Source of the DNA: Clostridia bacterium
Lineage (GTDB): Bacteria; Bacillota; Clostridia; Christensenellales; QALW01
Length of the DNA stretch: 64,000 bases
NCBI GenBank assembly: GCA_045591115.1
Contig: JAZNSH010000014.1
Span: forward strand, 14,769-78,768
Direction: 5' to 3'
The notes under the pieces were generated by a model, which was given only the letters and a program-made list of their open reading frames with translations, ran no database searches and had not been told where the DNA came from. The first letter of the stretch is position 1. Every line of letters starts with the position of its first letter. Shown here piece after piece: positions 25,640 to 46,034 of the stretch. A program made the translations under genes and the position numbers.

Positions 25640-25687
25640 AAAGAGATTTTTATAAAAAATTATAAAATCAAACTTAATTTTGATTCT

Positions 25688-25984: not shown

Positions 25985-26065
25985 TTTATATCAAAAAAAG
26001 ACACGCCTAAAAGACGTGTCATACCTACACATAACGTATAAGCTTTATAAACAGCTTAAAACTTT

Positions 26066-27423: not shown

Positions 27424-27468
27424 TTTTATATAAATATTTATTACAGCATCGCAAGCATTGCTTACTTA

Positions 27469-28254: not shown

Positions 28255-28396
28255 TTTAAGATCAACATCCTTCTAAAAATATTTCTTATATATTATATCA
28301 CTTTTCACCGTTATTTGTCTATAATTTTTTAGCAACATTATAGATACTTATTGTAAGTATCTTCAAACGTAATAGTTTTTGTTACTTTCATTTTTT

Positions 28397-28492
28397 TCAT
28401 TGTAAAACTCTTTTCAAATTACAAAAAATATTGGACACATCGTTTAGGAAAAACCTAAAATAATGTGTCCGCTTTTTTATATTAAAATTATG
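28397..28492 (-). repeat. Repeat family A, copy 1. It carries the conserved-stem terminator hairpin (28431-28470) but lacks the gene-end core.
   Basis: About 90% identical by eye to 29924-30020. The hairpin TTGGACACAT...ATGTGTCC plus a minus-strand T-run sits just after the stop of the FAD oxidoreductase gene. Confidence 0.8.
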
Positions 28493-28520
28493 CAAGAGGT
28501 TAATTCATTTACCAATATTC

Positions 28521-29813
28521 TTATTTTGCATTTGGTAAATAGGCGCCAAGTTCTTTTAATTTTGTTTGTAATTCCTTTATATCTATACTACGAACGTTTG
28601 CATTTTCACAAGCAAGTGCTGCAGCAATTCCTGCCGCTTGTCCCGTAATAAAACACCCCGGCATAACTCGGATTGATGCCTGCATTTTTTGATCGGTACC
28701 AATACACCGCCCCGCCACCAAAGCATTTGATAATGAAACAGGAATCAGGCATCTGTACGGAATACCGTAAGATTCACCTTTTTTGTATTTTAAGCTTTCG
28801 TTATATTCTTTTTCAAAGCGCTCATATTCTTTCTTATCTGTATTCTTAACGTGAATATCAACGGGATAACAATATCGCCCGATTTCATCATCAAAAACAC
28901 TTCTGTTGATAAAATCATCCACATTAAGCATATAATCACAAGTAATTCTGCGAGATTCCCTTACGCCTAAAATCGATGCTGTTGCAAGAAGTTCCATATC
29001 TTCATAACCCTCAAAATACGTTTTAAAATATTTTTCGTATTCAAGCATCATTTTTCTTCCCTTTATCATCGCACCTGACAATGATTTTTCATCCGTAGGG
29101 TCAACATCAAAGGTATGCCCGATATTTCCTCTACCGATTCCCTTTACGTCATAAAAAAAACCAGGAATATGTCTGTCCTCATTGGAAAGCACTCCGTCTT
29201 TATATGCTTTTTCAACAAAAGCGTTTGGTGCATGCTTTACCTTACTCTTATCAATATTTGTCCAAAGACTGCAAAGAGTCTGCGGCATAACTACACCATT
29301 TTCATCGCCCTTTTGAAAATTCGCACCTGCATATGCGCACAAATCACCATCGCCGGTACAATCAATATAAACCTTTGCCTTCACAGAAAACAGACCGCTT
29401 TTCGCGCCAAGAATAACCGCTTCAATTTTATTATCGACAGTTACAACGTCGTAGACCGTTGTAAAAAAAGAAAAATCAACTCCTGCTTCGGTGATTATTC
29501 TATCGTACTCCCTTTTTAGTTCTTCTGCATTTATAGTCGTCCAATAAGAATCAAGGGAAAAATGCTTTGATACATTTTTTCTTATTTCGTATCCAATACC
29601 ACTTGCAAGAACGTTTATGCCGTCATCAAAAGGTGCAAAAGCAGGAACCATACCCGAAGTACCCAATCCACCGAAGCACCCCGTTGACTCTGCAAGGAAT
29701 ACCTTTTTTCCGCACCGTGCCGCCGCTACGCTTGCCGCAATACCCGCCGCACCACCACCGGCAACAAAGACATCGGTTTCATATTTCACAGTAAGATTTT
29801 TAAAAAAATTCAT
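28521..29813 (-). CDS. FAD-dependent oxidoreductase (GIDA/FAD_oxidored-like)
   Basis: The preferred start is the ATG at 29813 (MNFFKNLTVKYETDVFVAGGGAAGIAAS) behind GGAGAG. The track start at 29846 is upstream. Confidence 0.7.
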   Translation of the reverse strand: MNFFKNLTVKYETDVFVAGGGAAGIAASVAAARCGKKVFLAESTGCFGGLGTSGMVPAFAPFDDGINVLASGIGYEIRKNVSKHFSLDSYWTTINAEELKREYDRIITEAGVDFSFFTTVYDVVTVDNKIEAVILGAKSGLFSVKAKVYIDCTGDGDLCAYAGANFQKGDENGVVMPQTLCSLWTNIDKSKVKHAPNAFVEKAYKDGVLSNEDRHIPGFFYDVKGIGRGNIGHTFDVDPTDEKSLSGAMIKGRKMMLEYEKYFKTYFEGYEDMELLATASILGVRESRRITCDYMLNVDDFINRSVFDDEIGRYCYPVDIHVKNTDKKEYERFEKEYNESLKYKKGESYGIPYRCLIPVSLSNALVAGRCIGTDQKMQASIRVMPGCFITGQAAGIAAALACENANVRSIDIKELQTKLKELGAYLPNAK

Positions 29814-29923
29814 TTTTTCTCTCCAGAAATGCATCAAAAATTTCAAAATGAACTATACAAAAGTTAAAATTTTTAATTATTATAACATATTCTTTTTTTT
29901 CTTTCAACACTAAATTTATTGTT

Positions 29924-30129
29924 TTCATTGTGAAACTCTTTTCAAATTACAAAAAATATTGAACACATCGTTTAGGAAAAACCTAAAATGATATGTCCAA
30001 CTTTTTCACATTAAAATTTATGTTTTTTGGATTTTACAATCATCAAATAAAACGCAAAAGTCTTAAAAGCCTTGCAAAATCTTAGCCCTTCATTGCAACT
30101 TCGCAAGCAACTGCAACTGCAACGGACAT
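29924..30129 (-). repeat. Repeat family A, copy 2: hairpin (29959-30000) plus a 65-bp core identical to the stop-proximal end of the GGGtGRT gene
   Basis: 30065-30129 equals 45016-45080 with no mismatch in my alignment. This span covers the stop codon and the last 15 codons. Identity ends abruptly at 30130 (CCCCCCC...). Confidence 0.85.
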
Positions 30130-30178
30130 CCCCCCCAAGTAACACATTATATTTTTTCATTTTTACACAAAAATCAAA

Positions 30179-31060
30179 TTATTCTGAAGCACATTGTTGA
30201 TCATCGGAGTTTCTTTTGCAATACCTATTGTTTAGTAAATATTTATATGGGGTTGTACCCGTATATTTCTTAAAAATTTTGATAAAATAACTGACACTCG
30301 AAAATCCGCAATCAAATGAAACGTTAAGAATATTTTGATGATTTTCTGAAAGCAACTTTTTCGCGTGTTCAATACGGTAACGAATAATATATTCAGCAGG
30401 TGTTTGTCCTGTATATTTCTTAAAAAGACGTATGATATACGACTTGCTATAATGTGCAACGTCACAAAGAGAATCAAGTGTGATTTGTTCGTAAAAATGT
30501 GTGTGAATGTAATCGAAAAGCAGATGTTGGACATAAAAATTATGCTTTTCAATAGTATCGTTCTCTTTGTACTCCCCGAGTTCAAGAAAACGAGCAAACA
30601 AAGAGCAGAAAATAGACTTCAATCGAAATTCATATCCAAAAGGTTTCTCATTATAACAAGAGATAATTTCCTTCATATGTTTTATAACTTCGTTTCCAAG
30701 TTCACTATTCTTAGAAAAGAAATTAGAAAACTCAAGACTTTCAAACCACAATGCAAGTTCATTTCCTGTCCAAAATTCCGGATGAACTACTATGGCTGTT
30801 ACGGATTTTCCTAAATCAAGATGTAAAGAATGGAGTGCGCCACCACGTATCATTAATACATCATCCTTATTCAATATCAACTGTTCCCCATCGACCGTAC
30901 ATTGCGCACCGTCATTATTAGAAATCAAAAACTCGTACTCATCGTGCCAATGATAACTGACAAAAGATGATTTGTATATTTTTAAAGGTAAACTTCCGCT
31001 TCTGTGAATTACCGATTCTTTGTAAAGCGCGTCTTTTATCATTTTAGCCTCTTTGTTCAA
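30179..31060 (-). CDS. AraC family transcriptional regulator (cupin plus HTH)
   Basis: 293 aa. The C-terminus FDCGFSSVSYFIKIFKKYTGTTPYKY. Divergent from the GH31 gene. Confidence 0.85.
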   Translation of the reverse strand: MNKEAKMIKDALYKESVIHRSGSLPLKIYKSSFVSYHWHDEYEFLISNNDGAQCTVDGEQLILNKDDVLMIRGGALHSLHLDLGKSVTAIVVHPEFWTGNELALWFESLEFSNFFSKNSELGNEVIKHMKEIISCYNEKPFGYEFRLKSIFCSLFARFLELGEYKENDTIEKHNFYVQHLLFDYIHTHFYEQITLDSLCDVAHYSKSYIIRLFKKYTGQTPAEYIIRYRIEHAKKLLSENHQNILNVSFDCGFSSVSYFIKIFKKYTGTTPYKYLLNNRYCKRNSDDQQCASE

Positions 31061-31171
31061 TATAATTATATTTTTAGCAAATATAATGATAGTAATCGTT
31101 ATATTCTTACGATATAATTATATTATAATTAAATTCCAAAGTCAACAAGGTAAATCAGGAGGTTACTAAAT

Positions 31172-33499
31172 ATGCTACAAACAAGTGCAATTATCAATAA
31201 AGACTATGTTCGTGAAAACGTTGTATCAGTTACACTTTCCGATGTTAAAGAGAACAGTTTACTATTTAAAGCAAATGCAGTTATAAAAAACTTTTCAAAA
31301 GTATCATCAGGCGACGATGAGATGTTTGATCGTATTAAAGAATCAACACAAGGAGATTTTACAACCGGAAGACTACTCATAGAGTTATTTAAGCAAGACT
31401 GCTTACGTGTACGATTCTTTATGGGTGAAGAAGTCGCTAAAAACGATACACCTATGGTATCAGGAAGCCTTGATGCCGGCACAGATATGCAGGTAAATGA
31501 AGATAATAATATCGTTACGGCTTGTTGTGGCAATCTTATCATTACAGTAACACTAAGTCCCTACAGTCTTAACGTATATAATATATCCACGGGCAAAAGT
31601 GTAAAGGTTGGCGGTTTTGAAAAAAATTTTTTTAACGTTCGAGATTCGCTTAATACAGGTCTTTGCTATATAAAAGGGGAATCTGTGCCTATTGCAACCG
31701 AAAATTTTGCACTTTCTCCCCACGAAGCTATATATGGCTTTGGTGAAAAATTTATCAAACTCAATAAGGTCGGTCAAACCATTGAATTTGATACTCAGGA
31801 CGGAATCGGCATAGGAACTCCCCGAACATACAAGAATATACCTTTCTATGTTTCAACAAACGGCTACGGAGTTTTTTTCAATCATTCTTCTCATATGACC
31901 TTCTTTGTAGGAAGTATGTATGCCGGTGATATTCAAGCAGCAATTCATGACGACTTCCTTGATTATTACATTTTCACCGGTAGCATAAAGGACATCATCG
32001 GCAACTACACTTTACTTACCGGAAGGTCTTCTATGCCTTCAAAATGGAGTTTTGGCTATTGGCAAAGCAAAATAACCTATCACAGTGCCGAGGAAATTTT
32101 AGACATCGTATGTAATATGCGTAAAAAGCAAATTCCTATGGACGTTATACATATCGACACACATTGGTTTAAAACTAATTGGTTCTGCGACTATGAGTTT
32201 GATAAGGAGAGATTTCCCGATCCAATGGGTTTAGTAAAGGAGCTTTCAGAACAAGGTGTTCACCTTTCACTGTGGCAGTTACCCTACGTACGCTTTGGTT
32301 CAAAAGCATTTGACGAATTCAAAAAGGTTGACGGCTTTGTAAAAAACAAAGACGGTGAGATGTACGACCTTCGAACCCTTGGCGTGATTCTATGTAATTC
32401 TCCTGACCCTGTTGGAATTATAGATTTCACAAACCCCAAGGCAATAGAAGCTTATAAAAACGTACTCAGAAGACTTTTTGATATAGGTGTAAGCGTTATA
32501 AAAACTGATTTTGGTGAGGCTGCCCCTTCGGACGGTGTTTATTATGACGGAACACCGGGATATAAAATGCACAACCTCTATCCCCTGCTTTATAACAAAG
32601 TCGTGTATGAATTAACCTCTGAATACTTCGGCAACGAAGCAATAGTTTGGGGAAGATCTGCCTACGCAGGTAACCAACGTTACCCTCTTTATTGGGGCGG
32701 TGATAACAGCCCGAATTTTGAAAATATAATCCCTCAGCTTGTTGGTGGTTTATCCTTTGGTATGTGCGGATTCCCATTTTGGAGTCAAGACGTTGGCGGT
32801 TTTATTGGACTTACCAATAACAAGTTGTTAATTCGTTGGATGCAGTTCAGCATTCTTATGTCGCACATAAGAATACACGGAAGTGGTGATCGAGAGTTAT
32901 ATAAATATAGTGATGAGTGCATTGAAATTTGCAAAAAATACCTCGATATGAGATACTCAATTCTGCCTTATCTGTGGGCACAAGCAAGAAAATGCTGTAA
33001 GGATGCGCTTCCTCTAACCAGAGCCTTGGTTATTGAGTATCAAAATGATCCAAACGTATGGAATATCGAAGATGAATATATGTCGGGTGACTCTCTGCTC
33101 GTTGCACCAATATACACTGAAGATAACAAACGTAGCGTTTATCTGCCCGAGGGTGTTTGGACTGACTGGCATACAGGCGAACGCATTGTTGGCGGAAAAT
33201 GGATGGATATAATTGCACCTTTAGACGTGCTTCCGCTATACGTAAAAGAAGGTGCCGTAATTCCTATCGGCACACGAATGAATTACGTTAACGAAAAGAG
33301 TATCGACATTTTAGAAATCAGAGTATATCCATTTGAACGTGATGGCAAAACGCAAATTGATGCTGAAACCTTTGATACGGTAATTCCTATAGTATACGAA
33401 GCAAAAAACGGGAATCACACCGTCTATATTCCTAAAACCAATATAAATTTAACGGTTAAATGTATGAATAATTCAATCATTAAAGTAGTTAAAAACTAA
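31172..33499 (+). CDS. Glycoside hydrolase family 31 (alpha-xylosidase / alpha-glucosidase type)
   Basis: 775 aa. GFGEKF, WQSK, IHIDTHW, KTDFGE and YWGGDN motifs. Confidence 0.85.
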   Translation: MLQTSAIINKDYVRENVVSVTLSDVKENSLLFKANAVIKNFSKVSSGDDEMFDRIKESTQGDFTTGRLLIELFKQDCLRVRFFMGEEVAKNDTPMVSGSLDAGTDMQVNEDNNIVTACCGNLIITVTLSPYSLNVYNISTGKSVKVGGFEKNFFNVRDSLNTGLCYIKGESVPIATENFALSPHEAIYGFGEKFIKLNKVGQTIEFDTQDGIGIGTPRTYKNIPFYVSTNGYGVFFNHSSHMTFFVGSMYAGDIQAAIHDDFLDYYIFTGSIKDIIGNYTLLTGRSSMPSKWSFGYWQSKITYHSAEEILDIVCNMRKKQIPMDVIHIDTHWFKTNWFCDYEFDKERFPDPMGLVKELSEQGVHLSLWQLPYVRFGSKAFDEFKKVDGFVKNKDGEMYDLRTLGVILCNSPDPVGIIDFTNPKAIEAYKNVLRRLFDIGVSVIKTDFGEAAPSDGVYYDGTPGYKMHNLYPLLYNKVVYELTSEYFGNEAIVWGRSAYAGNQRYPLYWGGDNSPNFENIIPQLVGGLSFGMCGFPFWSQDVGGFIGLTNNKLLIRWMQFSILMSHIRIHGSGDRELYKYSDECIEICKKYLDMRYSILPYLWAQARKCCKDALPLTRALVIEYQNDPNVWNIEDEYMSGDSLLVAPIYTEDNKRSVYLPEGVWTDWHTGERIVGGKWMDIIAPLDVLPLYVKEGAVIPIGTRMNYVNEKSIDILEIRVYPFERDGKTQIDAETFDTVIPIVYEAKNGNHTVYIPKTNINLTVKCMNNSIIKVVKN

Positions 33500-33526
33500 A
33501 TATTATGTTACGTTTCTAATATAAAA

Positions 33527-33647
33527 AAAGATGGACACCTCATTAAAGATTTCTCTAAAATGATGTGTCCAATTTTTTATGTTTTAAATTTTATAATAGG
33601 TCTTTTTATTAGCCCTTCATTGCAACGACCCAAGCAACTGCAACTGC
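33527..33647 (-). repeat. Repeat family A, copy 3: hairpin (33532-33571) plus a degenerate 39-bp core
   Basis: 33609-33647, TTAGCCCTTCATTGCAACgacCCAAGCAACTGCAACTGC, differs from 45033-45071 at 3 positions. Confidence 0.8.
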
Positions 33648-33719
33648 TTTTTATATTAAATTCAAATTCACTGTTCTGTATAGCGATTCAAAGATCATTT
33701 GATTACACGATGTATGTTT

Positions 33720-34535
33720 CTATTTTTGACATAAGCACATTTTTCTATATTCCGTAGGCGATAATCCGGTAAACTTTTTAAATTGTCGGCTGAAGTGATA
33801 TTCATCGTAAAAGCCCAAACTAAATGAAATATCTATTATTTTCATCTGTGGATAGTATTCAAGGCAGAATTTTGCGCTCTCGACTTTCTGTATCAGCTGA
33901 TATTGATGTATAGTCATACCGCAACACTCTTTAAAGGTTGTTTCTACCGTTCTTACACCCACGTTCAACATCTGCGCAATTTCTTTATTTGAAAAGTTTT
34001 TATGGACCGATGTGGTGAGTATCTTTTTAACATTGGATACCAATGCATATTTTGACTTATCGGATATAGTGCTTTCTGAAAGCTCGCATAAAAGTATGTT
34101 TAAATAAGATGAAGCCTTTAAATCATTACCTTTTGCGTGTTCTTCTATAGTTTTTACAAGCGTTTTTTTGATTTCGGGATTGTTCTTTGTCTCTACAATA
34201 GTGTTTATGTATATACAACTTCCATCGGTTTTGTATGACTGTGTATTTATATGTTTATCACCCGGCGCAACAGAAAAATGCACGAACATAGTATGTGTAC
34301 CCGCAGGACAGTCCTTGAGTCCAATGTGCGCAATTTCAGCAGGTTGTATAAATACATAGTCTTTTTCTGCATTTATAATTTCGCCACCTATGTCCAACTT
34401 CCAACTGCCTTTTAAAACATACGATATAATATGCTCATTCAGTGTCCTTGACGGATGTTTGACAGGTGATATAAATACGTTATGACTCGCGATTATAATT
34501 CGCCTGTTAGCATTTAAGTTAAAAATATTACCCAT
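33720..34535 (-). CDS. AraC family transcriptional regulator (cupin plus HTH)
   Basis: 271 aa. The C-terminus ISFSLGFYDEYHFSRQFKKFTGLSPTEYRK. Confidence 0.85.
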   Translation of the reverse strand: MGNIFNLNANRRIIIASHNVFISPVKHPSRTLNEHIISYVLKGSWKLDIGGEIINAEKDYVFIQPAEIAHIGLKDCPAGTHTMFVHFSVAPGDKHINTQSYKTDGSCIYINTIVETKNNPEIKKTLVKTIEEHAKGNDLKASSYLNILLCELSESTISDKSKYALVSNVKKILTTSVHKNFSNKEIAQMLNVGVRTVETTFKECCGMTIHQYQLIQKVESAKFCLEYYPQMKIIDISFSLGFYDEYHFSRQFKKFTGLSPTEYRKMCLCQK

Positions 34536-34660
34536 ATTATCACCTGCGTTTTTTGCGTTATTTTACATCATTATACTGAAAAGGTGCTTTTTTGTCAATT
34601 CACATTAAAACCTCTTTTTGATATGATTAATTTAGCAATATCAAAAAAGGAGGTGTGGTT

Positions 34661-35089
34661 ATGCTAAAAGGAATACCAAGTATTATTTCACCGGAGCTTT
34701 TAAAAATCTTAATGGAAATGGGACATGGAGATGAGATAGTAATAGGCGACGGAAATTTCCCGGGTCAGAGTATGAACGCAAGATGTGTGCGTTGCGATGG
34801 ACACGGCGTACCCGAAGTAATGGAAGCAATTTTAAAGCTTATGCCGTTGGACACATACGCAAAGCCTGCATTTATTATTCAAAAAATTCCCGGAGATAAT
34901 GTAGAAACCCCCATCTGGGATGTTTTTGATAAAATTATAAAAGAGCATACAGATGAAAAAATTGAACAAATTGAACGCTTTGCCTTTTATGAAAGAGCAA
35001 AGAAAGCTTATGCGGTTGTTATGACAGGCGAAACAGCACTTTACGGTTGTATAATTCTTAAAAAAGGTGTAATTAAAGAGGTGAAATAA
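34661..35089 (+). CDS. RbsD/FucU family sugar mutarotase
   Basis: MLKGIPSIISPELLKILMEMGHGDEIVIGDGNFP. ATG at 34661 behind AAGGAGG. Confidence 0.8.
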   Translation: MLKGIPSIISPELLKILMEMGHGDEIVIGDGNFPGQSMNARCVRCDGHGVPEVMEAILKLMPLDTYAKPAFIIQKIPGDNVETPIWDVFDKIIKEHTDEKIEQIERFAFYERAKKAYAVVMTGETALYGCIILKKGVIKEVK

Positions 35090-35091
35090 TT

Positions 35092-35637
35092 ATGGAAAAG
35101 AAAGTTTATATAGGAAACGACACAGCAGGATATTATTTGAAATCAAAGTGTATTGAATATTTAGAGGGCAAAGGCATTCCTTACGTTGATTGCGGTTCTG
35201 ATGACGACCCTGATATTGAAACAACAAGATATCCATTCTTTGCTGCAAAGGTTGCAAAAGCCGTAGCAAGCGGTGAAGCAAGATGCGGACTTTTAATTTG
35301 CGGTTCAGGTATCGGTATTTCGATTGCGGCAAATAAATTCAAAGGAGTTCGTGCGGCACTTGTTAACAGTACGTATTTGGCAAGAATGACACGCAGACAT
35401 AATGATGCTAACATTCTTTGTATGGGAGGAAAAATAATCGGTGAGTGGGAAGCCATTGACATTTTGGAAACTTTCCTTAATACTGAATATGACGGTTTGT
35501 TCCATGACGGTTCATTAGAGCTTATCAAAGAAGCAGAAAACTATATGATGAACGATAACGTATGGTGTGAAGAACCGAGAAAAATTTCAACGGGACCTTT
35601 GGCAGATGCAGAAATCTTTGACAGAAGCAAGGGTTGA
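35092..35637 (+). CDS. RpiB/LacA/LacB family sugar-phosphate isomerase
   Basis: 181 aa. GLLICGSGIGISIAANKFKGVRAA motif. Confidence 0.8.
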   Translation: MEKKVYIGNDTAGYYLKSKCIEYLEGKGIPYVDCGSDDDPDIETTRYPFFAAKVAKAVASGEARCGLLICGSGIGISIAANKFKGVRAALVNSTYLARMTRRHNDANILCMGGKIIGEWEAIDILETFLNTEYDGLFHDGSLELIKEAENYMMNDNVWCEEPRKISTGPLADAEIFDRSKG

Positions 35638-35652
35638 TAAAGGAGTAAAAAT

Positions 35653-36600: not shown

Positions 36601-36763
36601 TGGTAGTTTTTTAACAAGACAAAGAGCACCCGATAAAACCTTTTGCTTCCTTAGTTACATTATCACCCACGACTGCATAAAGATATGCCGGAAACTGATA
36701 TTTGTCTTGAATGACGTTATCGGCTGTTTTATCATACAATTAAAAAATTAGAGGTATGCCATT

Positions 36764-38218: not shown

Positions 38219-38259
38219 GTTTGACGGTAAAAAATAATTAACCATTAAGGAGACTATGT

Positions 38260-40149
38260 ATGAGAAAATTTGTTTCACTATTACTTGCATTCATTTTTTT
38301 GTTTAGCGGAGTACATCTTACCGTTTTTGCTGATAATGAAGAAAACACAAACCTGCTTTCCGAAGCAGATTCCACTTTTGAAAGCGGTGAAACAAACTGG
38401 AATATTTTTACGGCAGGTGAACTCTCCTTTGTTGATAATCCCAAAGGTGAAGGCAAGGTTATGAAGTATCAGGTAGATACCAACGCCTATACCGAAAAAA
38501 AGAATACTTGGCAAAGCTGTATTATTGATCTTAAACCTTTCATAAAGGAAGCAAATACCCTCTATATTGCTATGGACATTTTCTGCGAGGACGCATTTAA
38601 TGTTCAAATTATGATCAGATCCAAGAAAGAGCATCTTGATTTTGCAATGGAAAAGGATAGCGAATACATATGTTTAGGCAATATTTCAGGCGAATCCGAG
38701 TGGGCACACGGTGTGTTCTCTTTTGAAATAACCGATGAGGATATTGAAAGGACCGAGGGCAAGTGGGAGCTTTGCTTTGACCGTTTACCCACTATCCGTA
38801 AAGATCTTGTCATTTACGTTGATAACGTCTATGTTGGCTTTGAGGAGCCTGAAGAACCTGAAAAGGAAATAATTGAACTGCCTGAAATCAATGCAATTAC
38901 AAAGCAAGAAAATACTTTAATCGGTGCAATTCGTTGGGATGCCTACTTTGAAACCGACAGTAAAAAAAGCAACGTTTCACAACAGGTAGCAAAGGCACTT
39001 TCGCCAAGTGAATTTCATTGGCGTGCACCCTTTTTCAGCAACATCGATGATGCAGGCAACGTAACCTTCCCGGGCTATTCACTGGAGATTATTGAAAAGG
39101 AAATTGACTATGCAAAAGCAGGCGGTCTTGATTATTTTGCATATCTTTGGTACGAAACAACCGACCCTATGTCGGACCCCAGAAAACTTCATTTGCAAAG
39201 TGAAAAGAAAAATGATGTTTTGATGTGTGGCATACTTGAAACCATTCGTTCAAAAAAGACGATGAACGAGCTTTTTGAGGCAATGAAGGATGAATGTTAC
39301 GTTAGAATTGATAATCGTCCCGTTGTGTTCTTATATCAATATGATAGCAAGTGGACACAAAAAATGATTGATGAACTTCGTCAGGCTGCTGTTAAAGCCG
39401 GCGTAACGGAAGCACTTTATATAGTTGGTATGATTAGCTCGAAAGATATCATTCTTAATAATGCAAGCATAAAAAATGGAGTGGAAGCATTTTCGTGGTA
39501 TGCAATAGAACCTAAAAAAGCAGGCGGTATCGAATACGTTGAGTTTGCCGATTATTGCAGAAGCAAAACAGAAGAGTTCGGCACAATGTCACGTGCTCGC
39601 GGTTATAGTCTTATACCTTGTGTTTTAACAGGCTATGATATCCGTCCCCGTCTTAAAAATCCCGTTAGCTGGGTAGGTGGCGATATAACAAACCCTGACA
39701 AGTCAAAATGGCCTTACGGCAACAAGTTTACTTTTGATGCTTCACCGGAAGAAATCGGTGAATTATTAAAGTCTACCCTTGATTACGTTAAAGAAAATTC
39801 CAACAACTCAAAGGCAAATATGGTGCTTACTTATGCTTGGAACGAGCACGATGAAGGCGGTTGGATTTGCCCCACCGTAAAATGCGATGAAAACGGCAAC
39901 GTTATTTATAATGAGGATGGCACAGTACAAGTAGATACTCAGCGTATTGATGCTTACAGAAAAGTAATTGATGCTTACAGAGAGATCGAGCATACTGAAA
40001 TTACACCTTCCCCTGAAGCAACCGCACAACCTATTGATGACGAAATTACGCCCCAAAATAATATTTTGACTTATATTATATCAGGTGTATTAGTGTTAGC
40101 CGTTGCCATCGGTATAATCGTTGTAGTTATAGTAAAAAAGAAAAAATAA
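38260..40149 (+). CDS. Uncharacterised surface-anchored paralog: signal peptide, extra N-terminal CBM-like domain, the shared catalytic-like domain, a Pro/Glu linker and a C-terminal TM anchor
   Basis: 629 aa. Signal peptide MRKFVSLLLAFIFLFSGVHLTVFA; C-terminus ILTYIISGVLVLAVAIGIIVVVIVKKKK. Confidence 0.5.
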   Translation: MRKFVSLLLAFIFLFSGVHLTVFADNEENTNLLSEADSTFESGETNWNIFTAGELSFVDNPKGEGKVMKYQVDTNAYTEKKNTWQSCIIDLKPFIKEANTLYIAMDIFCEDAFNVQIMIRSKKEHLDFAMEKDSEYICLGNISGESEWAHGVFSFEITDEDIERTEGKWELCFDRLPTIRKDLVIYVDNVYVGFEEPEEPEKEIIELPEINAITKQENTLIGAIRWDAYFETDSKKSNVSQQVAKALSPSEFHWRAPFFSNIDDAGNVTFPGYSLEIIEKEIDYAKAGGLDYFAYLWYETTDPMSDPRKLHLQSEKKNDVLMCGILETIRSKKTMNELFEAMKDECYVRIDNRPVVFLYQYDSKWTQKMIDELRQAAVKAGVTEALYIVGMISSKDIILNNASIKNGVEAFSWYAIEPKKAGGIEYVEFADYCRSKTEEFGTMSRARGYSLIPCVLTGYDIRPRLKNPVSWVGGDITNPDKSKWPYGNKFTFDASPEEIGELLKSTLDYVKENSNNSKANMVLTYAWNEHDEGGWICPTVKCDENGNVIYNEDGTVQVDTQRIDAYRKVIDAYREIEHTEITPSPEATAQPIDDEITPQNNILTYIISGVLVLAVAIGIIVVVIVKKKK

Positions 40150-40165
40150 ATCAGAAGGCAAAAAT

Positions 40166-40396
40166 ACCGCGGAAAGATCCGCGGTCAGTCTGCTGGCAAA
40201 GTCAGCAGACTGTCAGAGTTCGAGAAACCCTTGCAAGCCAAGGCGCTGAACTTGCAAAAAAGGGAGTTTACATAGACGTAAATGACCGCATTTTGCAAGT
40301 GAAATGCAACGACGGAAATAGCACCCTGCAAAAATTTTGCAGGGTGCTATGTTTGTAAGGGTTTGTCAGTGCTCTGACCGCGGAAAGATCCGCGGT
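40166..40396 (+). mobile_element. Element B copy 1: a 191-bp non-coding insertion (40186-40376) flanked by a duplicated 20-bp terminator stem-loop
   Basis: ACCGCGGAAAGATCCGCGGT occurs at 40166-40185 and again at 40377-40396; only the second copy is followed by the T-tract. The insert is near-identical to 57558-57748. Confidence 0.8.
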
Positions 40397-40435
40397 ATTT
40401 TTTAGTTCACATTTATTCAAAGGTCTGAAAACTTT

Positions 40436-40873
40436 TTATTTCATTGCAACTTCGCAAGCAACTGCAACTGCAACGGACATACCAACCATGGGGTTGTTAC
40501 CTGCGCCGATTAAGCCCATCTTCTCAACGTGAGCAGGAACTGAAGATGAACCTGCAAACTGAGCGTCACCGTGCATACGGCCCATTGTATCGGTCATACC
40601 GTAGGAAGCGGGACCTGCAGCAGCGTTATCGGGGTGAAGTGTTCTGCCTGTGCCGCCACCGGAAGCAACTGAGAAATACTTAACACCGTTTTCGATAGCC
40701 CACTTCTTATAGGTACCTGCAACGAAAGGCTTTTCTTTACCCTGAATAGGTGTAATATTATAAAGCCAATTCTTGATAGGTGCAGAGAAGTCAAGACCAA
40801 GGAAACGCGCACGCTTCATTTCAGGTGCAAAGCTGGGTACGTTTGTTGCAGCAATACCGCCTTCGCCCTGCAT
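40436..40873 (-). pseudogene. Displaced 3' fragment of a GGGtGRT-family gene fused to unrelated upstream sequence (chimeric ORF)
   Basis: 40440-40734 aligns to 45040-45334 at a constant offset of 4600, with 8 mismatches in 295 bp and no indels. The region upstream of VAGTYKKW has no similarity to the intact protein. Confidence 0.8.
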
Positions 40874-40983
40874 AAGAAATTTTATGATTTCCAGAAGAAG
40901 TGTGTTGAAGAAAGAGACTTTGAGGCTTTGGAGATGTACGTTATGGAATTGCTTATGGGAATTAAATAATCCTAAAAAAAGTA

Positions 40984-41012
40984 TTTACACACAACGATAG
41001 ATGTGATATAAT
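40984..41012 (+). promoter_or_regulatory. Sigma-A type promoter
   Basis: TTTACA - 17 nt - TATAAT, 47 nt upstream of the ATG at 41059. Confidence 0.55.
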
Positions 41013-41058
41013 ATTAAACAAGATATGAGAATTTTATAAACTTGTTAACAAGCAAAAA

Positions 41059-41847
41059 ATGAAAATTGTGTTTTGTGCGTTGGTAGTTGTTGTAATGGCT
41101 ATTATGTGCACTACACTTTGCGCCAAAGAAGCGTATGAGAAATACGCTGTCAACGATCTGCCCAAGGTGCGTGATTACGGATTTTTCGGGCTTCACTACG
41201 TTGACGAATTGACGTCAGAGCCGATTTTGCCCTGCTATCACCCAAAGCATCCCGCAAACAGAACCGAATCGGAGGAATCATACAGAAAGATCGCAAAGCT
41301 GTGTAAGGAAATATTTGGCGGCTTTCAGTCTGAGTTGTGGATGGATTATATGAATTCCGACGTGGATTACATTATGTATACCTCATTCAAAGGGCGTCAT
41401 CCGTCGGGGGATAATAAGCTTTTTGACGATTACATTCCTTTATGGCAGCTTGTTTATCACGGAATAGTGCTATCCTCTGTAAGCTCGTCTACTATAAATT
41501 ATACGCTGAAGGATGCAAGCACACGCTTGCATTATGTTGAATTTGGCGGACGTCCCATAATGTATTTGTTCAGCAAGTTTGGCGAACGCAAAAACTGGAT
41601 GGGTGACATAGATCTTCGTCTTGTGTCCGAGGATGATTTGGACGGTGTGATAAAAGTGCTCCTTGGGGCACACGAAGAATATCAACAGCTAAAACATCTG
41701 CAATACGAGTTTATGGAAAACCACGAAAAAATAGGCGACGACCTTTACAAAGTAACCTACTCGGACGGAACGGTAATAACCGTTGATTATATCGGTTGTC
41801 GCTATACAGTTCAAAAGGACGGCGTTTCTCGCACGGTGAAATTTTAA
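41059..41847 (+). CDS. Hypothetical secreted protein, possibly the C-terminal part of a larger glycoside-hydrolase-like protein
   Basis: 262 aa. The N-terminus MKIVFCALVVVVMAIMCTTLCA is signal-peptide-like. The IPLWQLVYHG motif recalls GH31-like/DUF families. Confidence 0.4.
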   Translation: MKIVFCALVVVVMAIMCTTLCAKEAYEKYAVNDLPKVRDYGFFGLHYVDELTSEPILPCYHPKHPANRTESEESYRKIAKLCKEIFGGFQSELWMDYMNSDVDYIMYTSFKGRHPSGDNKLFDDYIPLWQLVYHGIVLSSVSSSTINYTLKDASTRLHYVEFGGRPIMYLFSKFGERKNWMGDIDLRLVSEDDLDGVIKVLLGAHEEYQQLKHLQYEFMENHEKIGDDLYKVTYSDGTVITVDYIGCRYTVQKDGVSRTVKF

Positions 41848-41861
41848 ATCAGGAGGCAGTT

Positions 41862-43466
41862 ATGATAAATTACAGCAAATTTTCCAATACCGAAAACCAC
41901 GCCTTTAACTTATATAACGCAATAAAGTATTGTAAGGATAATAACGAAAACGGCATTGTCTTTGACAAGGGCGTATACGATTTTTATCCCGAAATGGCGT
42001 GCGAGGATGCCTTGTGCGTTTCAAACCACGATATGTACGGCTTTTACAGAATTGCATTCTTGCTTAAGAATATGAAGGGTTTCACCATTGACGGCGGCGA
42101 CAGTGAATTTGTCTTTCACGGCAGTATAACTCCCATCGTTATTGAAAATTGCGAAAATATCACAATTAAAAACCTTTCGATTGATTACAAGGAAACAATG
42201 ACTCTTGACACCGAGGTCGTAGGCGTGGGAGAAGTCTTTTTCGACCTTCGTGTCGTGAATGACGACAAGTATAAGATTCACGGCAATATGCTGTATTATT
42301 ACAACGAATACAGAAACGAGGATATTTTCCATTACTTTTGCTTAAGAAGTCTTGGTGACGATAAGAGCTTTATCCCCGAAACAACCGACGAGTTCCGTGT
42401 GTTCAATCCCAAAATCCGCTTTGACGATCTTGGCGACAAGAAAATACGCGTATATAATTCGGGCATAAAGGTAAAGGTCGGTATGCACGTTCTTACAAGA
42501 GGCGCCGAAAGATTTGCCTGCAATATCCTTGCCACCAACAGTAAGGATATATTCGTGGAAAACGTAACCATGTACAAAAGCTACGCAATGGGGCTTATTG
42601 CGCAAAAGACCGAGAACGTTTTTGTTGACAATATGACCGTCAAGGCAAAGGACGACGCTCTCTTTTCACTCAACTGCGACGCCACCCACTTCGTTCACTG
42701 CAAGGGACTTGTAAAGGTTACAAATTCCACCTTCTCCGAACAGCAGGACGATGCCTTAAACATCCACGGCATATTTACGAGAATTATTGACAAAACCGAC
42801 GATTATATAATTATCAAGTATATGCACAAGAGCGCAAAGGGGCTTGATATTTATAAAAAAGGCGACGAGATTGCGGTTCTCAACCCCAAGACCTTGATTC
42901 CAAGCGGTCACTATAAGATTTCCGACGTTGAAATTATCAATATGAACTACACCAAGCTCTATATAGAGGGCGGAACCGAAAATATAAGCGTAGGTGACGA
43001 CGTTGAGGATCTGACCTGGAGTTGTGACTTGATTTTTGAAAACAACAGAGTATTTAACAACAGAGCAAGAGGAATGCTTATTGCCGCCAAAGGAAAGGTT
43101 GAGATAAGAAATAATTATTTCAACACCCCCGGTGTTGCTATCCTTTTTGAAAGTGACGGCGCAAAGTGGTATGAGTCGGGCGGAACTACCGACGTGAGAA
43201 TAACCAACAATATTTTTGAACATTGCAAGTACGTAAACAGCAGAACCTGGGGAAGCCACGTTATAGAGGTGAAGCCCAGAGAGGAATTTAACGAGGGCAA
43301 TTATTATCACCAATATATAAGCGTTGCGGACAACGAGTTCAAAAATTGTCCTGTCCCCCTTATTTACGCAGACAACGTGCAAACGGTTGAATTTAGGGGC
43401 AACAAGATACAAGACAGCAACGAAGATCTGCTTTTCAAAAACTGCGGTGAAATAATAAGAGGATAA
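41862..43466 (+). CDS. Right-handed parallel beta-helix (pectin-lyase fold) protein, a probable glycoside hydrolase
   Basis: The preferred start is the ATG at 41862 behind AGGAGG. Repeats of the NxxIxN / hxNxxh type (ITIKNLSI, VENVTMY, ITNNIFEHC). Confidence 0.6.
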   Translation: MINYSKFSNTENHAFNLYNAIKYCKDNNENGIVFDKGVYDFYPEMACEDALCVSNHDMYGFYRIAFLLKNMKGFTIDGGDSEFVFHGSITPIVIENCENITIKNLSIDYKETMTLDTEVVGVGEVFFDLRVVNDDKYKIHGNMLYYYNEYRNEDIFHYFCLRSLGDDKSFIPETTDEFRVFNPKIRFDDLGDKKIRVYNSGIKVKVGMHVLTRGAERFACNILATNSKDIFVENVTMYKSYAMGLIAQKTENVFVDNMTVKAKDDALFSLNCDATHFVHCKGLVKVTNSTFSEQQDDALNIHGIFTRIIDKTDDYIIIKYMHKSAKGLDIYKKGDEIAVLNPKTLIPSGHYKISDVEIINMNYTKLYIEGGTENISVGDDVEDLTWSCDLIFENNRVFNNRARGMLIAAKGKVEIRNNYFNTPGVAILFESDGAKWYESGGTTDVRITNNIFEHCKYVNSRTWGSHVIEVKPREEFNEGNYYHQYISVADNEFKNCPVPLIYADNVQTVEFRGNKIQDSNEDLLFKNCGEIIRG

Positions 43467-43468
43467 AT

Positions 43469-44668
43469 ATGTTTACATCTGAAGAAAAAGAGAAGATAAG
43501 AGAATATTACGAAGCGGTGCAAAAACGTATAAAAGAAAAGCATATAAACTGCTTTAAGGGACACGAAAAGCCGGTTTTTCTGATTTCAGATACATATCCC
43601 GGAGTTTGGCTTGAGCACGCTTACGATTCGCTTTTTTACGCCAAGCTTGACGGTAAATATCTTGATATCGCAAAAAACACTTTAAATCTGTTTCTTGATA
43701 AACAAAAGGAAAACGGTCAGCTTCCTTGCTTTGTTATTGATATGAACAAAGCCCCAAGATGGCAAGAGGTCGGATATTCCCAAATTCAGGAGTGCGTTTC
43801 ATTTTCAAGACTTTGCTATGAGTATTACGAAATGTCGAAGGACAAGGAATTTTTGAAAAAGGCATACGATAAGTGCGTGAAGTGGGAGAATTGGTACGAA
43901 ACCTACCGCAAGCCAAGTGGCAAAGGATTGATTGAGATCTTTTGCGGTCACGATACGGGGCACGATGGCTCGGCTCGCAAAGAGGGAATGACCTACGACC
44001 GTTGCGCCAAGGACAACGACGCCACGGTATACCCCGAAGGCGACGACGTTCTTCCGATGATTACCCCTGATAATAACGCAGTATATTACGGCACGTTGAT
44101 TGCTCTTTCCAATATGGCAAAGGAGCTTGGTGAGAATGCGGAGCATTGGGAAAAGAAAGCGGAAGCGGTGAGGGAAAAGCTTTTTGAAATTTGTTATGAC
44201 GGCAACGACGATTTCTTCTATGACGTTGACAAAAACGGCAACAGACGAAAGTACCTTTCTATTTCCATAACCAACGTGTTCGCGGAGTGCCTTTTGACGC
44301 AAAGTGAATTTGACGTTATTTACAACAAACACATGAAAAATCCCGACGAGTTCTGCACCGAATATCCATTTCCGTCAATGGCAAAATCAGATCCGAGCTT
44401 TAGGCAAAACGCAAGCGGAAACTCCTGGGGATTTTATTCGCAGGCTTTAACGATTCTCCGCTGTACGCGTTGGATGGACTATTACGGAAAATCGGAGGAT
44501 TTTGACGGGATACTTGAAAAATGGGTAAGACAGTTGACGTTTGGGAATGATATAATGTTCGGTCAGGAATTACATCCACTGACGGGCAAGCTATCTGACT
44601 GCTCCGAGTGGTATTCAAGCTGTATGCTTGTTTATCTGTATGCTGTAGAACGGTTGAAATTAATCTAA
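43469..44668 (+). CDS. (alpha/alpha)6-barrel glycoside hydrolase (GH63/GH37/MGH1-like)
   Basis: 399 aa. YPGVWLEHAYDS, GHDTGHDGS and the amphipathic-helix repeat pattern. Confidence 0.5.
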   Translation: MFTSEEKEKIREYYEAVQKRIKEKHINCFKGHEKPVFLISDTYPGVWLEHAYDSLFYAKLDGKYLDIAKNTLNLFLDKQKENGQLPCFVIDMNKAPRWQEVGYSQIQECVSFSRLCYEYYEMSKDKEFLKKAYDKCVKWENWYETYRKPSGKGLIEIFCGHDTGHDGSARKEGMTYDRCAKDNDATVYPEGDDVLPMITPDNNAVYYGTLIALSNMAKELGENAEHWEKKAEAVREKLFEICYDGNDDFFYDVDKNGNRRKYLSISITNVFAECLLTQSEFDVIYNKHMKNPDEFCTEYPFPSMAKSDPSFRQNASGNSWGFYSQALTILRCTRWMDYYGKSEDFDGILEKWVRQLTFGNDIMFGQELHPLTGKLSDCSEWYSSCMLVYLYAVERLKLI

Positions 44669-44720
44669 AAAGAGGGTATAACTATGGAACGAACCATATT
44701 GGAGAAAATTTATAATCAAA

Positions 44721-44861
44721 TCAAGACACCGTACAAATATAGAACTGTGTGTAGCTTTGCCGGTAATGTCCGATAGTGCCCTCTCTTAAATTTCTTTGTC
44801 GACAATTCTCCAAATACCTATTGCAGCCTTCCTCAAAAGTGAGCGTTACACCTCTTGACAT
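44721..44861 (-). pseudogene. Truncated tyrosine recombinase/integrase gene; only the N-terminal SAM-like domain (46 codons) remains
   Basis: From the ATG at 44861: MSRGVTLTFEEGCNRYLENCRQRNLREGTIGHYRQSYTQFY, then a stop. It lies about 170 bp from the stop of the intact GGGtGRT gene. Confidence 0.6.
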
Positions 44862-44894
44862 TTTGATCTTTTTCACCTTGTAAATCCTCCCTAA

Positions 44895-45032
44895 AAATAA
44901 AAAAATATTGGACACATCACAAGCGGAAATACGTTTATGATGTGTCCAACTTTTTAATTTATGATTTTGGGCGAAATGAGAATTTCGATGATTTCTAAAA
45001 ATCAAGAAAGCCTCAAAAAGCCTTGCAAAATC
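44895..45032 (-). terminator. Repeat family A, copy 4: the native 3' UTR and Rho-independent terminator (hairpin 44908-44949) of the GGGtGRT gene
   Basis: TTGGACACATCA-loop-TGATGTGTCCAA with a T-run on the minus strand. Homologous to copies 1-3. Confidence 0.8.
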
Positions 45033-46034
45033 TTAGCCCTTCATTGCAACTTCGCAAGCAACTGCAACTGCAACGGACATACCAACCATGGGGTTGTTAC
45101 CTGCGCCGATTAAGCCCATCATCTCTACGTGAGCAGGAACTGAAGATGAGCCTGCAAACTGAGCGTCACCGTGCATACGACCCATTGTATCGGTCATACC
45201 GTAGGATGCGGGACCTGCAGCAGCGTTATCGGGGTGAAGTGTTCTGCCTGTGCCGCCACCGGAAGCAACTGAGAAATACTTAACACCGTTCTCAATAGCC
45301 CACTTCTTGTAGGTACCTGCAACGGGATGCTGGAAACGTGTGGGGTTAGTTGAGTTACCGGTAATGGAAACACCAACGTTTTCTTTTCTCATAATAGCAA
45401 CGCCTTCAGAAACGTCGTTAGCGCCATAGCACTTAACCTTTGCTCTGTCGCCTGTTGAGAAAGCCTTTTCATATACAGTTTCAAGCTCGCCTGTATAGTA
45501 ATCATACTTTGTTTCAACATAAGTGAAGCCGTTGATTCTTGAAATGATATAAGCGGCATCCTTACCTAAACCGTTAAGAATAACGCGAAGAGGATTCTTA
45601 CGAACCTTATTTGCGTTAAGAGCGATCTTAATTGCGCCTTCAGCAGCAGCAAAGCTTTCGTGACCTGCAAGGAAGCAGAAGCACTCTGTTTCTTCACTTA
45701 AAAGCATTGATGCAAGGTTACCGTGACCAAGACCAACCTTTCTCTGATCGGCAACTGATCCGGGGATACAGAAAGCCTGAAGTGCTACACCGATTTCCTT
45801 TGCGGCATCAGCAGCAGTTTTGCAACCTTTTTTAAGTGCAAGAGCAGCACCTAAAGTATATGCCCAGCAAGCATTCTCAAATGCGATGGGCTGAGTTTCT
45901 CTAACGATTGTTTCAGCGTCAACGCCCTTACTAAGAGCGAATTCCTTTGCTTCATCAAGATCCTTAAAGCCATACTCCTTAAGGACAACGTTGATCTGAT
46001 CAATTCTTCTTGAATAACTTTCAAAATTTGCCAT
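45033..46034 (-). CDS. GGGtGRT-family conserved protein of unknown function
   Basis: 333 aa. Contains the name-giving SGGGTGRT motif (VASGGGTGRTLHPDN). Confidence 0.8.
   Translation of the reverse strand: MANFESYSRRIDQINVVLKEYGFKDLDEAKEFALSKGVDAETIVRETQPIAFENACWAYTLGAALALKKGCKTAADAAKEIGVALQAFCIPGSVADQRKVGLGHGNLASMLLSEETECFCFLAGHESFAAAEGAIKIALNANKVRKNPLRVILNGLGKDAAYIISRINGFTYVETKYDYYTGELETVYEKAFSTGDRAKVKCYGANDVSEGVAIMRKENVGVSITGNSTNPTRFQHPVAGTYKKWAIENGVKYFSVASGGGTGRTLHPDNAAAGPASYGMTDTMGRMHGDAQFAGSSSVPAHVEMMGLIGAGNNPMVGMSVAVAVACEVAMKG

Follow-up and report, generated by a model that had tools for sequence, protein, structure and literature searches.

Tandem accretion at the 3′ end of the GGGtGRT gene as the probable origin of an array of integrase-less carbohydrate-utilisation islands in a Clostridia bacterium

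Tandem accretion of integrative elements, with decay to islands that no longer carry an integrase, is a known phenomenon. The ICESt1 integrative and conjugative element (ICE) and the cis-mobilizable elements (CIMEs) of Streptococcus thermophilus are an example of such accretion at the 3′ end of a target gene. As reviewed for integrative and mobilizable elements (IMEs), a newcomer that integrates into an attachment (att) site holding the gene end gives rise to tandem arrays, and decay leaves integrase-less elements that retain attL and attR (PMC5704250). In Dehalococcoides, many tandem islands lie downstream of the single-copy gene ssrA, with direct repeats of its 3′ end and with a number and content that vary between strains; about half of them are without an integration module and have been proposed to be cis-mobilizable, and their cargo consists of niche-adaptive catabolic genes (PMC3146451). 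In the tycheposons of Prochlorococcus, repeated integration at one site pushes older elements into the island, where partial targets and fragmented integrases are scattered (10.1101/2020.12.28.424599). Here we describe an array of this kind behind the gene GGGtGRT in a stretch of 64,000 nt (the window) from Clostridia bacterium, assembly GCA_045591115.1, contig JAZNSH010000014.1, positions 14,769–78,768 of the forward strand. Our preferred reading, to which we give a probability of about 0.8, is that integrative elements have accreted in tandem at the end of GGGtGRT and have decayed to integrase-less islands; the last ~40–90 bp of the gene very probably serve as the attachment region and integration target. 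Full-text literature searches on GGGtGRT and its family PF14057 returned no paper in which the gene figures as a site of integration, and its use as one appears to be previously unreported.

The array shares with the streptococcal ICE, IME and CIME elements a tyrosine integrase at the 3′ end of a gene, the restoration of the gene end, and direct repeats of that end. It differs in its target, GGGtGRT, whose function is unknown, and in its hosts, which are uncultured gut Oscillospirales and other Clostridia. Moreover, neither the window nor an 11-kb element described below has recognisable genes for conjugation or mobilisation, the cargo consists of carbohydrate-utilisation operons, and the array is longer (four to five units), with every integrase decayed. 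The resemblance to the Dehalococcoides ssrA islands lies in the tandem islands after one gene, the gene-end repeats, the integrase-less units and the catabolic cargo; there, however, the target is a tmRNA, the repeat has 20 bp and the enzyme is the serine recombinase DsiB, whereas here the target is a protein gene, the repeats have 39–295 bp and the recombinases are tyrosine recombinases of at least three families. The layered insertion and the fragments of target and integrase also recall the tycheposons, whose cargo consists of nutrient-acquisition genes; tycheposons use tRNA targets and carry characteristic replication modules, while the target here is a protein gene and no such module was seen.

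The order of the modules is read in the direction of GGGtGRT, i.e. towards lower coordinates, and positions such as −38 are given relative to the end of the stop codon. GGGtGRT is preceded by a gene of 230 codons with a weak NifU-like match. The gene, its downstream junction and the copies of the gene end (scars) are the following.

45033–46034, minus strand: intact GGGtGRT gene, 333 amino acids (aa), matching PF14057 profile positions 1–325 of 327 (E 1.4e-190)
45016–45088, minus strand: gene-side junction with an attL-like core, consisting of the last ~55 nt of the coding sequence, the stop codon (45033–45035) and 17 nt downstream
44890–44965, minus strand: element-borne bidirectional terminator hairpin of module a, assigned from its fold and from the occurrence of the same hairpin between stop codon and integrase elsewhere
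44721–44861, minus strand: family-A tyrosine-integrase stub, 46 N-terminal codons followed by out-of-frame sequence and a stop codon
40735–40897, minus strand: aminotransferase fragments (Aminotran_5/DegT-like) in the distal arm of module a, two pieces fused to scar 4
40440–40734, minus strand: scar 4, the last 295 bp of GGGtGRT (codons ~234–331; PF14057 positions 234–325) with its own ending, AMK and stop
33520–33647, minus strand: scar 3, the last 39 nt of the gene including the stop codon (33609–33647), a short spacer and a hairpin (33527–33585)
29915–30137, minus strand: scar 2, the last ~55 nt and the stop codon (30082–30137), a 62-nt spacer, a hairpin (29948–30019) and the first bases of an integrase start (29915–29947)
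28335–28491, minus strand: scar 1, a hairpin (28420–28491) and an integrase stub of ~22 codons (MKKMKVTKTITFEDTYNKYL and stop, 28335–28400)
27437–27457, minus strand: probable terminal scar, a degenerate 21-nt gene-end remnant beside the host flank (GFO_IDH_MocA gene, 26066–27265)

All gene-end and hairpin copies share the orientation of GGGtGRT. A 32-nt core probe has four matches in the window compared with none in 100 shuffles of the window, the hairpin pattern has two exact matches compared with none in shuffles, and no further significant copy of core or hairpin was found elsewhere in the 64 kb. The segment 30065–30129 in scar 2 is identical to 45016–45080 over 65 bp (100%), and the 39-bp core of scar 3 has 3 mismatches, which fall within its 32-nt search probe (33616–33647). 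Scar 4 is a displaced or imported copy of the gene end: 40440–40731 matches 45040–45331 with 96% identity over 292 nt. None of its 8 mismatches is closer than 88 nt to the stop codon; they fall within the 205 nt next to the stop-proximal block, and the 81 stop-proximal nt are therefore identical to the intact gene. In extent, this block corresponds to the 82-nt repeat that flanks the 11-kb element. The 21-nt remnant at 27437–27457 has 81% identity to the intact core, agrees with the intact core of a related contig (L107) at 17 of 21 positions by manual count on the alignment, and occupies the same place relative to the conserved GFO_IDH_MocA flank as the L107 core; judged from this alignment, which taken alone is weak evidence, it is probably a degenerate fifth copy of the gene end.

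After the stop codon of the intact gene follow, in this order, 17 nt that recur elsewhere in the array region, a spacer, the hairpin, a ribosome-binding site and an open reading frame (ORF) starting MSRGVTLTFEEGCNRYLENCRQRNLREGTIGHYRQSYTQFY that ends after 46 codons. The downstream part of the junction at 45016–45088 is element-derived, and the CAAGGCTTTTTGAGGCTTTC that follows the stop codon in the window agrees at 19 of 20 positions with the CAAGGCTTTTTGAAGCTTTC that follows it in L029, a locus with a full-length integrase. Rfam and tRNA scans of the array region gave no match, so the site is neither a tRNA nor a tmRNA and the hairpin does not belong to a known RNA family.

Between the scars lie the modules, which together form an array of 17.6 kb in the order a-b-c-d-e from the gene.

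41059–44668, plus strand: cargo of module a, a C-terminal DUF5696 fragment, a beta-helix/GLAA-B protein and an MGH1-like (alpha/alpha)6 glycoside hydrolase (Pfam)
40150–40439, minus strand: proximal arm of module b, with its own stop context and a CCGCGG terminator hairpin; a 191-bp repeat is inserted at 40186–40376
33648–40149, plus strand: cargo of module b, AraC (minus strand), RbsD_FucU, LacAB_rpiB, a GH5-like protein, a 484-aa protein and its 629-aa WbsX-like paralog; distal boundary TTTTTATATT at 33648
30138–33499, plus strand: cargo of module c, AraC (minus strand) and a GH31 alpha-glucosidase-type hydrolase; at the distal boundary (30137/30138) ...CCA gives way to AGTAAYACATT
28521–29846, minus strand: cargo of module d, an FAD-dependent oxidoreductase (FAD_oxidored, PF12831, E 2.3e-95)
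27469–28254, minus strand: cargo of the probable module e, a glucosamine-6-phosphate isomerase/deaminase-like gene (nagB-like, PF01182, E 6e-23)

Modules a, b and c are bounded on both sides by cores and contain integrase stubs only, with no other recombinase or transfer gene, which is the defining state of a CIME. Two of the five modules, b and c, have their own AraC regulator. The nagB-like gene sits between scar 1 and the degenerate terminal scar and is absent from the equivalent position of L107; since it is bounded by the remnant at 27437–27457 on one side and by the hairpin and weak stub at 28335–28491 on the other, it is probably a fifth module, the oldest. GC content does not distinguish the modules, as it ranges from 0.34 to 0.44 throughout and is slightly higher in module a. 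The proximal arm of module b reads GGTCTGAAAA(A)CTTTTTATTTCATTGCAAC..., and its distal arm ends in ...GCAACTGC followed directly by TTTTTATATT. A preliminary description of this DNA, made from its letters, had placed the gene end at 45033 and a terminator hairpin at 44908–44949, and had listed four same-orientation copies of gene end or hairpin, the contents of the modules between them and a truncated tyrosine-integrase gene at 44721–44861 beside the gene end. All of this stands: the PF14057 match and the fold confirm gene and hairpin, the four copies are present in their places, Pfam agrees with the module contents, and the integrase fragment has full-length counterparts.

Several features of the cargo are worth recording. 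The DUF5696 ORF (41059–41847) covers only profile positions 381–605 of 612 and has the same length, 262 aa, in a related assembly (L002); it appears to correspond to the C-terminal third of some longer protein. The two adjacent paralogs of module b (36764–38218 and 38260–40149) have 70% identity over 117 nt; 38260–40149 alone has a weak WbsX-like Pfam match, and NCBIfam matches neither. The 191-bp repeat occurs twice in the window, at 40186–40376 and 57558–57748, with 92% identity. Both copies interrupt intrinsic terminators, with the entire terminator hairpin duplicated on either side (ACCGCGGAAAGATCCGCGGT for the first copy, AAGGCAGATGCAAAAAGCATCTGCCTT for the second), and the insertions are absent from the related L101, L103, L104 and L001. 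The repeat has the appearance of a small mobile element that is non-coding and has terminators as its target. Its insertion within 40150–40435 is unrelated to the scars, and L101, L103 and L104 have the proximal arm of module b uninterrupted by the 191 bp.

The hairpin next to the intact gene, GGACACAT...ATGTGTCC at 44910–44947, forms a stem-loop at 44908–44949 (−25.7 kcal/mol, z −6.05) that is flanked by an A-run before and a U-run after it. Its copies at 33520–33591, 29948–30019 and 28420–28491 fold similarly well, with z-scores of −5.3 on the minus and −6.3 on the plus strand for scar 3, −4.0 for scar 2 and −5.9 for scar 1. The same hairpin separates an integrase start from the stop codon of GGGtGRT, or from a copied gene end, in L029, L006, L020, L021, L089–L100 and L109–L112. 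A scan for GGGtGRT that used one genome per species, and of which 80 species-level loci were kept, allowed the flanks to be surveyed over 531 kb downstream and 511 kb upstream of the gene; hairpins were found downstream of the gene or of a repeated end nine times and upstream not once. Among 23 distinct hairpin variants from many species, drawn from the window and about 20 loci, the outer stem of 10 bp (GGACACATCA/TGATGTGTCC) is almost invariant and its main change is compensated (AGACAC with GTGTCT), while the inner stem and the loop differ freely with complementarity kept. Judging by these variants, the conservation of the outer stem exceeds what a terminator needs, and the invariant part may mark a protein-binding site. 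The hairpin was also considered as the crossover site, an idea rejected on the grounds that the far junction of complete elements has no hairpin.

The 46-aa stub next to the intact gene aligns with residues 7–61 and 3–51 of two full-length integrases (L029 and L006, respectively) at 62–65% identity (tblastn E 1e-17 and 2e-18) and is identical in L002; the second stub, ~22 codons at 28335–28400, has a weak tblastn match to the L029 integrase (E 0.009). The full-length proteins of this family, here called family A, start 102–145 bp after the GGGtGRT stop codon in L029 (327 aa) and L006 (315 aa), and a frameshifted copy occurs in L020. Family A is a short Xer-like recombinase with Phage_int_SAM_5 and Phage_integrase domains and without an arm-binding domain, and it scores below every NCBIfam equivalog cut-off. 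Its relatives number 2,726 at E <= 1e-20, and the best 120 of these are all 94–100% identical to the query. A second family, B, comprises proteins of 430–490 aa with a SAM_3 N-terminal domain, encoded 0.1–1.8 kb from the stop codon in L075, L021, L042 and L068. The full-length integrases beside the gene in L029, L006, L075 and L089–L100 all combine PF00589 with SAM-like N-terminal domains. Over the 80 species loci the integrase profile has seven matches downstream of GGGtGRT and none upstream, and exact look-up of two integrase proteins (P0111 and P0005) found GGGtGRT immediately upstream, 100–150 bp away, in 12 of 12 places, with upstream flanks that represent at least four different host backgrounds.

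A search with a 41-aa stub query returned more than 120 protein clusters, all of 37–72 aa and 66–97% identical, although the search may favour short proteins. The break-off points of the 25 stubs retrieved differ (...REGT, ...YTQFY, ...KFFDP, or later), which indicates that loss of the integrase by deletion is frequent and independent. The result was not accepted as proof that full-length close relatives are missing, given that only short proteins were returned, possibly as a consequence of the candidate collection.

Complete elements at GGGtGRT in other genomes show how such units would be built. In L089 and L090, an 11-kb element after the gene is flanked by direct repeats of 82–86 nt that span about −89/−93 to −8; it encodes the integrase, a PARG/cytidylyltransferase protein, a 462-aa protein of unknown function, a Sel1 protein, a resolvase, an HTH protein and a Macro protein. 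At the far junction, element-specific DNA (...CTGATTCAGAGTGC) leads directly into gene homology and then into what appear to be the last codons and terminator of the host. At the gene-side junction, the last two to three codons, the stop codon, AAGGCTTTT...GGCTTTTTAAAGCTTTCG and the hairpin are specific to the element and the same across different hosts. As the gene-side ending is element-specific and the far side host-like, the element replaces the gene end and supplies the terminator. Gene-end repeats also flank an element in L098, and in L075 a family-B integrase heads a 7.4-kb island that is closed by a gene-end repeat of 67 nt, so that the repeats range over 67–86 nt in L075, L089, L090 and L098. 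Integrase-less islands between gene-end repeats are known from L051 (HTH and GH28 genes) and L052 (Ku, ligase and Y-family polymerase genes). Pfam, PHROG and NCBIfam gave no conjugation, coupling-protein, relaxase or mobilisation match in the window modules or the 11-kb element, where a novel relaxase is possible.

Phages use the same place. Sixty IMG/VR contigs carry GGGtGRT, in full or as a C-terminal piece that typically comprises the final 50–110 codons, and about 40 of the 60 have an integrase ~0.1–0.8 kb downstream that is family A-like, family B-like or belongs to a third family of ~405 aa. On one contig of 46 kb, the full gene, a 314-aa integrase and tail genes (tape measure, Dit and tail proteins) are followed by a 109-codon fragment of the gene, and we interpret this contig, from its gene content, as a tailed prophage at the GGGtGRT site. 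At least three integrase families, phage ones included, use the site. In three IMG/VR contigs (L167, L168 and L171) a 50–56-codon GGGtGRT fragment lies between two integrases, the upstream one encoded on the minus strand and the downstream one on the plus strand, an arrangement that suggests two integrase-bearing, possibly phage, elements in tandem. The window modules contain no virion or packaging genes by Pfam, and a first search of viral contigs for close relatives of family A found distant recombinases only. Because a stricter hairpin pattern has no match in 2.9 million viral contigs, the hairpin-bearing subfamily of family A looks non-phage; related integrases without the hairpin do occur in prophages.

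Among close relatives of the window, the site is polymorphic. Four other assemblies (L001–L004) encode an identical GGGtGRT protein; downstream of the gene no two of them agree, and in each the divergence begins at the stop codon. In L001 and L003 the gene is followed by a plain terminator, with neither hairpin nor integrase, and occupied, differently occupied and unoccupied states are all found. In L004, a gene matching phrog_14112, a phage protein family (1371–1655, E 2.5e-25), starts 40 bp after the stop codon, with no hairpin and no integrase between the two.

The modules themselves behave as units. Eight related contigs, obtained by exact-protein look-up of RpiB, were mapped onto the window and their junctions aligned. 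Along the direction of the gene, each unit consists of its own post-stop sequence with a terminator and sometimes an integrase stub, then the cargo, and then gene homology of a length specific to the unit. The gene homology of module b ends at −38 beside TTTTTATATT in the window, L101, L102, L103 and L107, and that of module c ends at −55 beside AGTAAYACATT in the window and L101. What lies beyond the core varies: module b is followed by module c (window, L102), by module d (L101) or by the host GFO_IDH_MocA flank (L107), and module c by module d (window) or by module a with stub and hairpin (L101). In L101 the modules run ...-b-d-(Metallophos gene)-c-a, compared with a-b-c-d-e in the window, with unchanged orientation, and the module a block with its stub, hairpin and core occupies another position of the array there. 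The segment 28392–30006 is 98% identical to L101:6881–8498, with different neighbours. In L107, module b is 98% identical to that of the window and is joined through the core to a GFO flank that is 78% identical, and in L105 module b stands beside a GGGtGRT/NifU-like pair of 72% identity. Units with fixed ends, reordered and found beside diverged host flanks, argue for horizontal movement of modules into the same locus. Arrays of the same kind occur further afield: in L113–L115, four hairpins and gene fragments separate modules that include AraC, GH42 and GDSL-lipase genes, and in L109–L112 a 31-codon gene fragment, a hairpin and a stub precede a module with proton pyrophosphatase, AraC and FAD oxidoreductase genes. 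Exact-protein look-ups of the GH31 protein and the FAD oxidoreductase of the window found no record, that of DUF5696 found no contig beyond one already known, and a metagenome scan for the distal arm of module b gave no match.

Taken together, these data support the following mechanism. The attB site would be the last ~40–90 bp of the GGGtGRT coding sequence, used by several tyrosine-integrase families in gut Clostridia. An incoming circle would carry, as its distal arm, a short copy of the gene end and, as its proximal arm beyond the crossover point, replacement last codons, a stop codon, the strong bidirectional terminator hairpin and the integrase gene. Integration would thereby keep GGGtGRT intact and terminated, and shift the older gene end and everything behind it one step downstream. 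The crossover is expected in the stretch that all repeats share, ~8 to 38 nt from the end of the stop codon, a range for which the comparison of junctions across hosts gave ambiguous bounds. At this locus integration would have taken place at least four times, probably five, each module presumably arriving with its own integrase; the integrases would then have been removed by deletions that stop at or just inside the integrase start, and later reshuffling would have relied on integrase action in trans, on homologous recombination between scars, or on both. The outcome would be five integrase-less, CIME-like carbohydrate-utilisation units, each bounded by a gene-end core and/or a hairpin. The preliminary description had proposed just such islands, integrating at the 3′ end of the gene and bringing a replacement end; the complete repeat-flanked elements in other genomes lend it support, as do the intact integrase elements beside GGGtGRT orthologs (L029, L006 and L075, the 12 look-up places and the phage contigs). 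Its two further concerns also came out in its favour: core and hairpin are not scattered, neither in the window nor around the gene in the 80 loci, and across strains the locus has four downstream sequences for an identical protein, with the same modules reordered.

Several observations weigh against this reading, at least in its simplest form. There is no intact integrase in the 64 kb, and hence nothing shows that the window modules are mobile now. The complete integrase-bearing elements that were found carry no sugar genes, the nearest case being the integrase-less L051, so that the link between integrase elements and sugar modules rests on the stubs, the hairpins and the module-specific arms. 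Pattern scans of the JGI metagenomes and IMG/VR did not find the attP junction of the 11-kb element, which is a weak negative. Most of the sequences compared are metagenome contigs or metagenome-assembled genomes (MAGs), in which repeats can produce chimeric joins. At scar 1, and at two of the four L113 hairpins, the junction has no core. Where the arrangements of the window and L101 part, the breakpoints are within the hairpin (30006/8498) and three codons into the integrase start (28392/6881), positions that homologous recombination between scars explains at least as well as an integrase does.

Finally, there is the order of the sequences in scar 4. The aminotransferase fragments match L001 (blastn: 40709–40867 with L001:11399–11241, 93.7%; 40858–40897 with L001:10683–10644, 92.5%), where the aminotransferase gene sits 2.2 kb downstream of GGGtGRT. 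In the window they are fused in frame to the 295-bp GGGtGRT fragment, creating an ORF at 40436–40873, and the order, aminotransferase and then gene end, is circularly permuted relative to L001, which is not what a minimal attP arm would lead one to expect. The permutation suggests a tandem-duplication or circular-intermediate junction in the past of scar 4, the history of which is more complicated than that of a simple attP arm.

These observations leave room for other explanations. One is that the gene end and hairpin form a cassette platform, at which integrase-less sugar operons, each with a core and a hairpin, are excised, exchanged and re-inserted in trans by family-A integrases, whether resident or visiting, as a functional analogue of the integron built on the 3′ end of a protein-coding gene. 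We regard this as possible, if doubtful. There are points of likeness: the units are small, share one orientation and are promoter-poor or self-regulated, the sites are palindromic with conserved outer arms and a variable centre, and the recombinase is short and Xer-like. On the other hand, the family-A integrase reaches only 53.7 bits with TIGR02249 (cut-off 265) and 36.4 bits with NF011946 (cut-off 435), complete elements recombine at the gene-end core and not at the palindrome, which the far junction does not have, the units here are operons of 1–7 kb with their own regulators, and there is no attI/Pc platform. With an integrase so far below the IntI thresholds and recombination at the gene-end core, the array is not an integron.

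Another explanation holds that there were one or two real integrations, after which scars were multiplied, and modules inserted, deleted and permuted, by RecA-type recombination, unequal crossing-over or allelic exchange driven by transformation, with the repeats of 40–190 bp (cores, hairpins and integrase starts) as homology and most events proceeding without an integrase. Much of what complicates tandem accretion is what this would predict: the L101 breakpoints inside hairpin and integrase start, the core-less junctions, the resemblance of scar 4 and its aminotransferase fragments to a tandem-duplication or circle junction, and the lack of an integrase in the window. To these can be added the 90% identity over 92 nt between the hairpin and integrase-start repeats (29915–30006 and 28387–28478) and the make-up of the cores, which are mosaics of TTCG and GACC variants with a 6-nt unit, GCAACT, that varies in copy number. 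Nevertheless, each module has its own extent of homology to the gene (about −27?, −38, −55 and −301) and its own post-stop sequence, as separate attP signatures; at least three integrase families, phage ones included, use the site; and module b meets the 78%-identical host flank exactly at the core. As an account of the array as a whole we therefore consider it unlikely, while the present-day reshuffling of modules may owe as much to homologous recombination between scars as to the integrase.

That the array arose during assembly, as a chimeric MAG or contig in which repeats strung together modules of different strains, is highly improbable. L101, L103 and L104 do end within or just after the scar 4 core, and the d/c junction of the window is unmatched in any other assembly compared. 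However, the junction of module a with the gene and scar 4 are reproduced in L002 (95% over 7.1 kb), the c/b junction in L102, the junction of b with scar 4 in L101, L103 and L104, and the block of scar 1, module d and hairpin in L101, and arrays of the same design occur in the unrelated assemblies L113–L115 and L109–L112. The last alternative, a generic REP-like or terminator repeat that resembles the GGGtGRT end by chance, might appeal to the quality of the hairpins as intrinsic terminators and to the 191-bp repeat, which does target terminators, and yet it is extremely improbable, given that no copy lies outside 27.4–45.1 kb in the window, that hairpins stand downstream and never upstream of the gene in the species loci, that viral contigs yielded none, that the core repeats the gene's coding end letter for letter, and that the hairpin is always linked to an integrase start.

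The surroundings of the array hold further variation. L001 lacks the ~7.9 kb (47747–55451) that separate the genes for BacA and PEPCK in the window and has ~110 bp between the two instead. A GH127 beta-L-arabinofuranosidase-like gene lies in this segment, which has no copies of core or hairpin and represents a second strain-variable insertion of sugar genes, on the opposite side of GGGtGRT from the array. The region 16251–27265, between a Cys/Met-metabolism gene (14902–16197) and the array, is likewise not common to L001, which has SASA, aminotransferase and GFO_IDH genes at this position; variability therefore extends beyond the array that the scars delimit. A short-read contig (L106), whose positions 1–54 match window 61291–61344, joins the sequence at ~61.3 kb straight to module b at 33679. 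The site at 61.3 kb is intergenic, between minus-strand ORFs at 60537–60992 and 61430–62011, and the homology to the fumarase region of L001 stops at ~61341; the join is either another rearrangement or an assembly chimera. The sole Rfam match in the window is a T-box leader (RF00230, 105.7 bits) at 2788–3026 on the minus strand.

Accretion at the end of a gene is unsurprising in principle, but the present case should be useful for work on mobile elements and on the gut microbiome. The gene end and the hairpin can serve as markers by which mobile cargo is found and delimited in MAGs and by which contig breaks at this locus are explained. An abundant, nearly identical integrase of 312 aa with a defined target of ~80 bp is a candidate for inserting DNA site-specifically into the genomes of these organisms. 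The 3′ end of GGGtGRT emerges as a widely used attachment site in gut Clostridia, shared by no fewer than three integrase families, those of tailed prophages among them, and the integrations build a strain-variable island of glycoside-hydrolase and sugar-isomerase operons. This provides a concrete route for the turnover of carbohydrate-utilisation genes in uncultured Oscillospirales-type bacteria.

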